A DNA stretch of 64,000 nucleotides from Acinetobacter phage vB_AbaS-Bhz15. The stretch lies in sequence record PV067732.1; one strand, written 5' to 3'. The position numbers and the translations under genes are program-made. Positions 46,305 to 48,433 of the stretch are shown piece after piece (position 1 is the first letter of the stretch; the number at the start of each line of letters is the position of its first letter). The notes beneath the pieces were generated by a model. That model was not told the origin of the DNA. It searched no databases and saw only the letters and a program-made list of their open reading frames with translations.

Positions 46305-46872
46305 TTAATAGCTCCACTATTTTATACAATCCCTTTATTTCAGTACCATTAGGGCCCTTTATTGCGACTGTATTTGTTATCATTTCTCCCCATCTATGCA
46401 CAAATGCCGGCATTTGCATAAAATCCGGAGTATCAATTTTCTTGCCTTTGTGCTTCACACTTACACAACATTGATTTAGAAGAATATCTAATGGCCCTTT
46501 AAGCAATTCAAACGATGGCGATCTAAATTTAAATTCATACTCACCATAAGAAAACTTTAATTGTTGGCAAATATAAACATCATCGAGCTTATATACAAAT
46601 CCATCCTTTTCAACAGATTGTTTTAATCTCCCATTGTACTCTAATAGATGAAGTGTTAATATATCTCGTTCAGCTAAAGACAAATTAGGCTGAATATAAT
46701 TTAATAACACTTTCATAGTTTCTTCATGGTTTGAAGCGTCTTTTATGAGCATTCTATGTTTTAGTCCAAGCTTAGGTACTTTTATTTGCTTACCATTAAC
46801 TTCAATAACTTTAGTTTTTGGAACTAAATCTAATTTAATATTTCCCATTTTATCCTCCTGCACTATACCCAT
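46297..46872 (-). CDS. 28: baseplate hub distal subunit gp28
   Basis: 191 aa (T4 gp28 is 177 aa). Synteny. Confidence 0.5.
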   Translation of the reverse strand: MGIVQEDKMGNIKLDLVPKTKVIEVNGKQIKVPKLGLKHRMLIKDASNHEETMKVLLNYIQPNLSLAERDILTLHLLEYNGRLKQSVEKDGFVYKLDDVYICQQLKFSYGEYEFKFRSPSFELLKGPLDILLNQCCVSVKHKGKKIDTPDFMQMPAFVHRWGEMITNTVAIKGPNGTEIKGLYKIVELLSE

Positions 46873-48433
46873 AACGTGCTCTATATACTGTATATGTTAA
46901 ATTATCACTTCTATTTGGCTGAACTCCTGATTGGATAAAATCAGAGACCCATTGTGTACCTGTGAAAATACAAACATGTCCATATTTCTGACCAAGGCGT
47001 GTGTTTGTTCTTTGGAAAACTGCGATATCGCCTTTCTTTACATTTTTTACGTTTTGACCGACTGCAATCCACCCCATTTGGACTAGACGCGGTGGCATTT
47101 CATTTGCATTCCCTAGGCCACCAGCAAAGAAATTTTCAAGTTGTGCAGCTTGGAGTGCTTTACGAACATATAACGCACATTCACCTGTGGATTTACGCCC
47201 TTGTGCATTCTTTGTGACAACTTCGGCGAGCTTATCTAAATCCCATTGTGCACCTTTCTTGTCGGCAGATGCTTCAGGCTGAACGGTGTCTGAAGGAGGT
47301 GTAATTGTCTCAATTTCATTTTTTATTTTTTCGATATTTACTGGAACTAAATCCTTCCCGTTTGTAAAAACATAAAGATGAGTTTCAGATGAGTTGTTTG
47401 TAATAACATGAACTACCTCATCGATATAGAATTCAGTTTTAAATTGTCCCTTCTTGTCGCCAAATACGATTTTTTGGAGCGGCGTCAAAGTAAAATCACC
47501 CACAACCTTACATGTTGCATATCCATCATATTGGGCCATTGTTAGCAATCGAAAGGCTTCTTCATATCCATTACGGTATGTCATTTCCGAATATCCACCT
47601 GAACGAGATACAACAACAGAATTAGTTCCTTCACCGATTGAAATTCGTTGAATTTCTTTATCGTTAAATGAATGACTATACACTGTAACATTTTCTAATG
47701 GATTTCTGACATTTCTGTTAGTTTTAGCTAGCCATGTAAAGTCATAAGCCAATTGCTCTTTCATGTTTGCGATATACGCACCAATTTGTGCTGGATCACC
47801 GACTACCATGACTCTTGGCTTCTGATCAATCATGAATTTGTAATCAGAAATATTAATGCCTGTGAAATCTTCCCATACAAATGGATGAGTTTCAGATTCA
47901 ACAGAAAGGCCAACTTCTCTTACATATTCGAAATAATCGGTAATCGTGCTTACCCAAGCCACTCGAGGAACATATACGTTAAGACCTTTAACTTTAGGCG
48001 CAAGCTGTGCTTTATTGTTATAAATCGATTTTATCATTGTCTCAATAGATTCAGTAGCATTAGCAAAAAATGCTCGACTAAATTTAACATCTTCGACAAC
48101 ATGCAATGGTCTTAAATTAAATGCAAGTATATTGTCTCCCTTTTCATCAACTGATACTGCAGTATCGTTGCACCCATAGATACGTGTAATAACATCTTTG
48201 GAATTTGCATTTGATAGTGATATTTGAATTATTTGTTCACCATTGAGTTTAGCATGCAAATTCTTGGAGTCATAAAACTGGAGAACTCCTTCATTGATAC
48301 CATATAACCCATCTCTTAATGTGAGAGTAGTAAATGTGGCAGCTAATTCAATAAATCTATTTTCTTTCCAAGCATCATAATCTTCATATAGTTTTATGCT
48401 TACGTTAGGATACCCGGGTTTTTGCATTGTCAT
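46850..48433 (-). CDS. 27: baseplate hub subunit gp27 fused to a C-terminal CHAP-like peptidoglycan hydrolase domain
   Basis: The N-terminal 390 aa align with T4 gp27 throughout (QKPGYPN.S.KL...YDAW..NRF.ELAAT.TTLT.RD.LYG.NEG.LQFYDSKN, SRSG.YSEMTYRNGYEEA.RL.TMAQYDGYA, FKTEFY.DEV.H, THLY.FTN). The extra 140-aa C-terminal region has a Cys...His pattern typical of CHAP domains: TGECALYV, KKGDIAVFQ, YGHVCIF. Confidence 0.8.
   Translation of the reverse strand: MTMQKPGYPNVSIKLYEDYDAWKENRFIELAATFTTLTLRDGLYGINEGVLQFYDSKNLHAKLNGEQIIQISLSNANSKDVITRIYGCNDTAVSVDEKGDNILAFNLRPLHVVEDVKFSRAFFANATESIETMIKSIYNNKAQLAPKVKGLNVYVPRVAWVSTITDYFEYVREVGLSVESETHPFVWEDFTGINISDYKFMIDQKPRVMVVGDPAQIGAYIANMKEQLAYDFTWLAKTNRNVRNPLENVTVYSHSFNDKEIQRISIGEGTNSVVVSRSGGYSEMTYRNGYEEAFRLLTMAQYDGYATCKVVGDFTLTPLQKIVFGDKKGQFKTEFYIDEVVHVITNNSSETHLYVFTNGKDLVPVNIEKIKNEIETITPPSDTVQPEASADKKGAQWDLDKLAEVVTKNAQGRKSTGECALYVRKALQAAQLENFFAGGLGNANEMPPRLVQMGWIAVGQNVKNVKKGDIAVFQRTNTRLGQKYGHVCIFTGTQWVSDFIQSGVQPNRSDNLTYTVYRARYGYSAGG

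Follow-up and report, generated by a model that had tools for sequence, protein, structure and literature searches.

Gene 27 of Acinetobacter phage vB_AbaS-Bhz15 encodes a baseplate hub protein, gp27, with a C-terminal extension that is absent from its counterpart in phage T4. The gene was analysed in a 64,000-nucleotide stretch of the phage genome (sequence record PV067732.1), referred to here as the window, in which it occupies positions 46850..48433 on the minus strand. Its open reading frame (ORF) of 1584 nt comprises 527 codons and a stop codon, and the extended length noticed in a first-pass annotation of the sequence (527 aa, compared with 391 aa in T4) is confirmed. The protein is probably a T4-type gp27 with a tether of about 20 residues bearing a catalytically competent Cys-His peptidoglycan amidase/endopeptidase of the Tae3 family, which would aid entry into the host cell. 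The presence and position of this domain in the virion, its enzymatic activity, its bond specificity and its role in entry are inferred. The expected location in the virion is based on T4 gp27, which is a virion component (structures 9MKB and 5IV5).

Core, linker and predicted amidase domain of gp27

The core of the protein (residues 1-375; 47309..48433, minus strand) corresponds to domains I-IV of T4 gp27. Residues 4-383 of the T4 protein (PDB 1K28, 391 aa) align with residues 3-381 at an E-value (E) of 1.3e-149. Two Pfam families are matched over their full length, namely Phage-tail_1 (PF09097) at residues 4-198 (256.8 bits, profile positions 1-196 of 196) and Phage-tail_2 (PF09096) at residues 201-373 (234 bits, profile positions 1-173 of 173). 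A full-length AlphaFold2 model was computed with a 55-sequence alignment as input and reached a mean predicted local distance difference test score (pLDDT) of 85.9. The modelled core superimposes on the T4 gp27 structures 9MKB and 1K28 with template modelling scores (TM) of 0.95-0.97 and root-mean-square deviations (rmsd) of 1.4-2.1 Å, and VgrG structures were also matched by the core in the fold search. The earlier statement that the first 390 residues or so align with T4 gp27 therefore holds, both for the sequence and for the fold (TM 0.97).

The extra C-terminal part, which had been estimated at about 140 residues (46850-47290), amounts to 146 aa (residues 382-527) and consists of a variable linker followed, from about residue 397, by a folded domain. 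The linker (residues 376-396; 47246..47308, minus strand) is predicted to be flexible. Its pLDDT falls below 50 at residues 373-384 of the full-length model, and most short forms of gp27 found in other T4-like phages end in this region. In the most divergent relatives, identity drops to 0.18-0.27 over residues 376-405, while both flanking domains retain 0.52-0.63. Because the linker contains no Met codon, separate translation of the tail from an ATG, the only type of start considered, is unlikely.

The folded domain (residues 397-527; 46853..47245, minus strand) is clearly assigned by sequence profiles and by the predicted structure to the Tae3 family within the CHAP/NlpC-P60 superfamily, rather than to canonical Pfam CHAP. 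The Pfam CHAP profile (PF05257), whose gathering threshold is 26 bits, matches residues 415-492 with 28.2 bits (E 2.7e-06) when the tail alone is searched, and a precomputed PF05257 match is present in only some of the relatives with a long gp27. The Tae4 and TIGR02594 profiles are matched weakly (E 0.002 for the latter). The only solved structure found with the tail by sequence was Tae3, chain 4HZ9_A (phmmer, single sequence, E 3.4e-07). A profile built from six sequences of the tail family matched the same chain at E 8.9e-28 and 100.5 bits over chain residues 7-118 of 119, with the NlpC/P60 enzyme CwlO and a CHAP endolysin following, both at 8e-4. Since the Tae3 profile match reaches 100 bits while the CHAP score is borderline, the tail is placed in the Tae3 family.

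The predicted fold points in the same direction. The tail has a pLDDT of 70.5 when modelled alone and of 79-91 within the full-length model, which is the better of the two. In a Foldseek search with the tail-alone model, the papain-like amidase Tae3 was the best PDB match (E 4.9e-07, TM 0.83, rmsd 2.2 Å, 30% identity). It was followed by CHAP endolysins, Tse1/Tae1 and the CHAP domain of the phage 812 hub protein. The solved CHAP structures among the fold matches were 8TW1 (E 4e-4) and, weakly, 4OLK and 9EUM (E 0.2-0.6). The first-pass annotation had described the extension as a CHAP-like Cys-His domain. The Cys-His peptidase superfamily is upheld by the CHAP match of the tail and by the superposition on Tae3, while canonical CHAP gives way to the better-fitting Tae3 family.

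The putative active site is composed of residues from both motifs that had been quoted for the extension, TGECALYVRKAL for the cysteine and YGHVCIF for the histidine, each of which is present in the ORF. The predicted nucleophile is Cys419 (codon TGT, 47177..47179, minus strand), the N-terminal residue of helix 419-430. The predicted general base is His486 (codon CAT, 46976..46978, minus strand), the first residue of strand 486-490, so that the AlphaFold model has a papain-like order. In the phmmer and profile alignments, these residues are aligned with C23 and H81, the catalytic pair of Tae3, an amidase effector of Ralstonia pickettii (PMC11796386). Ser497-Asp498, in a W-V-S-D-F motif (codons at 46940..46945, minus strand), align with S92-D93 of Tae3 and supply a candidate third catalytic residue. 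Located 11-12 residues past His486, they are nearer to the Cys-His-Ser triad with which Tae3 has been described (PMC10318531) than to the Cys-His-Glu triad of CHAP enzymes. Cys419, His486, Ser497 and Asp498 are invariant in all 34 clusters of long gp27 proteins, and in 42 of 42 diverse members of the domain family these four positions do not vary either. The quoted motifs are therefore conserved at Cys419 and His486, but not at Cys488 within YGHVCIF, which is replaced by Ala in 22 of the 34 long gp27 relatives.

Conservation along the protein is uneven. In the most divergent relatives with a long gp27, the identity of the tail (0.56-0.63) is equal to or higher than that of the core (0.52-0.61), and that of the linker is about 0.2. 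The ratio of nonsynonymous to synonymous substitution rates (dN/dS), calculated against phage Apostate at a dS of about 1-1.5, takes values of 0.026 (core), 0.057 (linker) and 0.059 (tail, residues 406-527). Because the tail is as conserved as the core, the linker decays and dN/dS is low, this pattern marks a functional domain that is folded and hangs on a flexible tether.

Distribution of the fusion and comparison with known systems

The uninterrupted 1584-nt ORF recurs in 51 independent records of phages, with nucleotide identities of 83-99%. The region is 99% identical in phages Melin, Minot, Mokit, PhT2 and AbTZA1 and 83% identical in the Lazarusvirus group; PhT2 is classified as Straboviridae, Twarogvirinae, Hadassahvirus. 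The long gp27 proteins form 34 protein clusters of 518-534 aa with identities down to 51%, and the fusion is also present in the early Acinetobacter isolates 133, Acj9, Acj61, Ac42 and ZZ1. The other gp27 homologs among the matches listed belong to T4-like phages, among them enterobacterial, Serratia, Pseudomonas and Shewanella phages. With lengths of 343-406 aa, they cover no more than the first ~72% of the query, and most of them stop shortly after a KVKNE[LI]K motif (reference positions 371-389). Among the 120 homologs listed, no other C-terminal domain was found on gp27, and the short tails consist of approximately 10-25 polar or acidic residues. Since all other gp27 homologs among the matches listed are short, the gp27-amidase fusion is specific to the Acinetobacter T4-like clade. 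Neither a published description of this fusion nor virion proteomics for this group of phages was found in the open-access literature. A further copy of the tail, 78% identical, lies in CAVJPU010000002.1 (167,038 bp, 'bacterium isolate ... cleanbin_000012'), a T4-like phage genome of Acinetobacter type and complete length that was deposited as a contig of a bacterial metagenome-assembled genome and is held in the species-representative genome collection.

The domain itself is distributed much more widely than the fusion. A word-indexed protein search with the tail alone gave 5 matches, and an exhaustive profile search was needed to recover the full family, which includes 2761 representative clusters at E <= 1e-3. 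A gp27 N-terminus was present in 1 of the best 150 of these representatives. In a subset of 42 proteins, mainly 296-1046 aa in length, the fusion partners are PG_binding_1, LysM, SH3, lysozyme, GH19, SLT, pesticin, RHS repeats and a VgrG3-like C-terminal domain. Most of these partners bind or cleave peptidoglycan, which fits a peptidoglycan hydrolase module. An unusual array is found in a protein of 2419 aa (P0006), in which seven separate stretches match the tail-domain profile and a gelsolin-repeat match is also present.

The nearest relatives of the tail outside gp27 are 43-56% identical and belong to proteins of 1044-1717 aa that match phage PHROGs. One of them combines SLT with CHAP and matches the PHROGs 'lytic tail protein' and 'internal virion protein with endolysin domain'. 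The best copies in bacterial genomes, many of them in Moraxellaceae, are at most 42% identical to the tail, and the Tae17-type copy of Acinetobacter is only 32% identical; recent capture of the domain from the host was therefore rejected. In Campylobacter phage CP220, a domain copy with 34-36% identity occupies approximately residues 745-850 of a 1159-aa protein (3769-7248), which is annotated as 'endolysin' or 'membrane protein' and has a predicted transmembrane helix. Its gene occupies the site of gp29 in T4-like phages, directly upstream of a gp48-family tube-cap gene. This position is the only point in favour of a gp29 homolog, an assignment unsupported by sequence, as BLASTP revealed no significant similarity to gp29 (E 0.14). 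Two genes after it, CP220 contains a long run of 85-97-bp tandem repeats. A match in the phage collection named 'Acinetobacter phage MD-2021a' (CAKLQH020000017.1, 1-12303) was rejected as a second phage context and is bacterial chromosome instead. It carries dusA with an adjoining phage integrase gene, a LysR regulator, aconitase and a thiF-like gene. Just downstream of dusA, at 5803-6312, it encodes a Tae3-like homolog of 169 aa that stands alone and has 34% identity to the gp27 tail.

Degradation of peptidoglycan has been shown for three homologs of the domain, namely Tae3, Tae17 and the cleaver domain of phage 812. Tae3 of R. pickettii (PDB 4HZ9 and 4HZB) belongs to the same family by the profile match, fold and identity given above, and shares the aligned Cys-His pair and a W-[VI]-S-D-F motif. 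Both Tae3 and, by inference, the phage domain ride a contractile injection machine into the periplasm of a Gram-negative cell. However, Tae3 is a free 14-kDa effector of a type VI secretion system (T6SS) and is neutralised by the immunity protein Tai3, whereas the phage domain is fused to the hub and no T6SS is involved. Instead of an adjacent Tai3, gene 27 has gene 28 downstream and gene 51 upstream; its product thus carries a homologous catalytic domain and is not a T6SS effector. The PHROG assignments of the neighbours reveal no immunity-type gene after the amidase domain, where gene 28 comes next. Such a gene would be unneeded, since the amidase lacks a signal peptide and would be made in the cytoplasm. 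Bond specificity is known for Tae2 and Tae3 (PMC3695027).

A second relative, Tae17 of A. baumannii, is found in the host genus of the phage and combines LysM and a lytic transglycosylase with an amidase of the same Tae3-like family, delivered by VgrG17. Residue C488 of Tae17 is essential for amidase activity on peptidoglycan (PMC11796386). In A. nosocomialis, a 583-aa LysM protein encoded directly downstream of VgrG ends with the domain, in a copy 32% identical to the gp27 tail. Because its C489/H551 and H277/E279 are each offset by one residue from the published Tae17 sites, this protein is, as judged from its sequence, a Tae17 ortholog. The small ORFs that follow its gene have hydrophobic, signal-peptide-like N-termini, as judged by eye from the translations. 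The VgrG next to this ortholog is a homolog of gp27/gp5. Tae17 pairs a glycan-cutting with a peptide-cutting activity, as the phage hub would. The arrangement differs, however: Tae17 is bound to VgrG non-covalently and holds both activities in one chain, while the phage carries the predicted amidase on gp27 and the lysozyme in gp5.

The same architecture occurs in the hub protein of Staphylococcus phages 812/K (PDB 9EUF and 9EUM), in which gp27-fold domains I-IV are followed by a C-terminal CHAP 'cleaver', and both chains were recovered by fold searches with the phage gp27. The cleaver domain degrades cell walls in a zymogram, and hub enzymes of other phages are mentioned in the same paper (PMC13433997). 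In contrast to the Acinetobacter protein, the 808-aa hub of 812/K belongs to Herelleviridae infecting a Gram-positive host and has an extra clamp domain and a Cys-His-Glu triad, with an identity of ~10-14%. Its active site is capped by a weld protein, of which no counterpart was identified in the Acinetobacter phage. In T4, the enzyme of the spike and hub of this Gram-negative myovirus is the gp5 lysozyme, a position comparable to that proposed for the gp27 amidase, and in gp5 of the ViI-like phage CBA120 a TIGR02594/NlpC-P60 domain takes the place of the lysozyme (PMC3184105). Both T4 gp5 and CBA120 gp5 have a single enzyme inserted in gp5, whereas here the predicted enzyme is an appendage of gp27 and exists alongside the retained gp5 lysozyme. 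'Evolved' VgrG proteins, such as VgrG3-type peptidoglycan hydrolases, likewise link a gp27-like module covalently to a wall-degrading domain that is carried into the target periplasm. Their effector comes after the OB and beta-helix modules of gp5 type, whereas in the phage the domain comes directly after the gp27 module, gp5 being a protein of its own.

Proposed role in the hub and alternative explanations

Gene 5 lies outside the window, the late genes continuing past its right end in the direction of gp18, and gp5 was consequently read from phage PhT2, which is 99% identical. PhT2 gp5 is a protein of 595 aa with Gp5_OB, Phage_lysozyme (38.5 bits) and Gp5_C (beta-helix) domains. It is 37% identical to T4 lysozyme and keeps the residues at E11, D20 and T26, with the T4 lysozyme sequence entered by hand for this comparison. 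Since the lysozyme domain is intact in this near-identical phage, the predicted amidase is an additional hub enzyme and not a substitute for the lysozyme, and the first-pass proposal that it is an alternative to the gp5 enzyme is not borne out. The phage probably cuts the host wall with two hub enzymes where T4 uses one.

In the proposed mechanism, contraction of the sheath would drive the spike and hub through the outer membrane. The gp5 lysozyme would then cut glycan strands and the gp27-borne amidase would cut peptide stems or cross-links, so that both enzymes open the Acinetobacter sacculus locally for the tail tube. With a linker of ~20 residues, three domains of 14 kDa each could be placed next to the lysozyme domains of gp5. 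The chain of VgrG runs from a gp27-like module to gp5-like OB and beta-helix modules. Because of this order, the C-terminus of gp27 is expected to emerge on the spike side of the hub, which is consistent with the VgrG fold matches. After contraction, the T4 hub remains at the tip of the tube in the periplasm (PMC13433997), where the glycan-cutting and peptide-cutting enzymes may act together.

Several observations weigh against this interpretation. On the whole protein, the Pfam CHAP score is 25.1 bits, just below the cut-off. The intact gp5 lysozyme makes a second wall hydrolase look redundant, and T4 and all of its enterobacterial relatives listed have a gp27 without such a domain. The hub region of T4 is densely packed, and three extra 14-kDa domains would have to be accommodated in it. 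Finally, the bond specificity is extrapolated from a homolog of 30% identity.

These points leave some room for other functions. It is unlikely that the tail is a non-enzymatic structural or peptidoglycan-binding module that anchors or orients the hub at the wall or in the baseplate. Such a role would be in keeping with a wall hydrolase already supplied by the gp5 lysozyme, and catalytically dead CHAP folds are indeed kept as structural or binding modules in a baseplate, as in the 'clip' of the phage 812 weld protein (PMC13433997). However, the 812 clip lacks catalytic residues, while the four residues of the putative active site of gp27 are invariant at the same positions as in the active Tae3 and Tae17. 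A structural role is disfavoured because it would not require invariant catalytic residues.

A second alternative, with a low probability, is that the tail is a cysteine protease acting on protein, whether by processing the hub or tape-measure protein, by releasing itself from gp27 or by cleaving proteins of the host envelope. The assembly of the T4 hub includes proteolytic maturation of gp5, and the tail would be tethered near gp5, gp28 and gp29. The papain-like superfamily also includes many true proteases (PMC10318531). Against this stand the experiments on Tae3 and Tae17, which are peptidoglycan amidases, and the fusion partners of the family, which are overwhelmingly peptidoglycan-binding or peptidoglycan-cleaving. 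Nothing indicates a protein substrate.

It is very unlikely that the domain is an active enzyme serving lysis from without, the killing of non-permissive neighbours or late lysis via unassembled gp27, rather than entry. The same domain family acts as a T6SS killing toxin, the host genus included, and T4 entry needs the gp5 lysozyme only. However, a covalent link to an essential structural protein of low copy number (three per T4 virion) suits local action at the injection site, and without a signal peptide there is no evident route from the cytoplasm to the periplasm. In addition, dedicated lysis genes are standard in T4-like phages. The idea that the fusion is an artefact, with two neighbouring genes run together through an error in sequencing or assembly, has a negligible probability and is already refuted by the uninterrupted ORF in the 51 independent records and the 34 clusters.

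The reading of the tail as a wall-cutting entry enzyme can be extended further, although only tentatively, to a form that is possible but short of probable. Twarogvirinae gp27 would then be the phage counterpart of an 'evolved VgrG', and its Tae3-family cross-link endopeptidase would form, together with the gp5 muramidase, a two-enzyme wall drill required for efficient genome delivery through the sacculus of Acinetobacter (Moraxellaceae). Its nearest relatives would represent one shared virion-borne hydrolase module that moves between phage proteins unrelated to one another (tail, tape-measure and internal proteins) and, at a greater distance, T6SS effectors.

Precedents for hub-borne wall hydrolases and their relatives are known (the CHAP domain of the 812/K hub, CBA120 gp5 and Tae17). 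T4 is the reference model of contractile injection and has the gp5 lysozyme as its sole wall-cutting enzyme in the hub, to which the Acinetobacter clade would add, on gp27, a second enzyme of different chemistry. The set of enzymes in a T4-type hub thus appears to be modular, and the question arises why an Acinetobacter host requires peptide cleavage besides glycan cleavage. In the host genus, VgrG17 delivers an amidase of this family, so that phage hubs and T6SS spikes would be linked in their cargo in addition to their structure. From a practical point of view, a strongly conserved domain of ~130 aa whose natural target would be peptidoglycan of A. baumannii, which ranks as a priority pathogen with multidrug resistance, may be a reasonable catalytic module for engineered lysins, although such use would still require passage across the outer membrane. 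The domain is invisible to annotation-based lysin mining because the records say 'baseplate hub' only.

The hub gene cluster and other features of the window

Public records name the 527-aa protein 'baseplate hub (subunit)' or similar. It matches PHROG 1135, 'baseplate hub', at E 1e-180, and it is 99% identical to the protein annotated as 'baseplate hub subunit' in the Acinetobacter phages Melin, PhT2 and AbTZA1. A different name is given by one NCBI source for a protein cluster identical to the window gp27 (P0156), namely 'LysM domain protein [Acinetobacter baumannii]', despite the fact that no LysM domain was found in the window gp27 by Pfam. This suggests a phage sequence within a bacterial assembly, with a label possibly transferred from Tae17-like LysM proteins.

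PHROG assignments place gene 27 in a T4-type hub cluster on the minus strand, composed of gp51, gp27, gp28, gp29, gp48 and gp54; gp26 and gp25 lie on the plus strand in the same neighbourhood. The position of gene 27 fits the cluster order 51-27-28-29-48-54, according to the PHROGs of six neighbouring ORFs and the annotation of relatives. Directly upstream is gene 51, coding for the hub assembly catalyst (48430..49185, minus strand; PHROG 150 and 634, and gp51 in relatives). Directly downstream is gene 28 for the distal hub subunit (46297..46848, minus strand; PHROG 1140, E 6.5e-65). Gene 29, which encodes a hub subunit and tail-length determinant, lies at 44598..46304 on the minus strand (PHROG 1283, E 5e-134).

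The probable start codon of gene 28 is the ATG at 46848-46846, rather than an upstream ATG at 46872, and the alignment with the gp28 PHROG profile begins at the shorter start. At 46859-46854 there is a perfect AGGAGG Shine-Dalgarno sequence. Because it falls inside the last codons of gene 27 (…S-A-G-G-stop), the C-terminal 'AGG' of gp27 may be constrained partly by the ribosome-binding site of gp28.

Elsewhere in the window, positions 10001-18000 have a G+C content of 0.40-0.41, compared with about 0.35-0.37 in the remainder, and a negative GC skew. This segment coincides with two very long minus-strand ORFs, presumably genes for long tail fibres, at 8885-13033 (1382 aa) and 14949-18092 (1047 aa). 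In PhT2, a region outside the window contains a tRNA cluster in which a 'tRNA-Pyl (cta)' is annotated at 28483-28555; its CUA anticodon would read amber codons.

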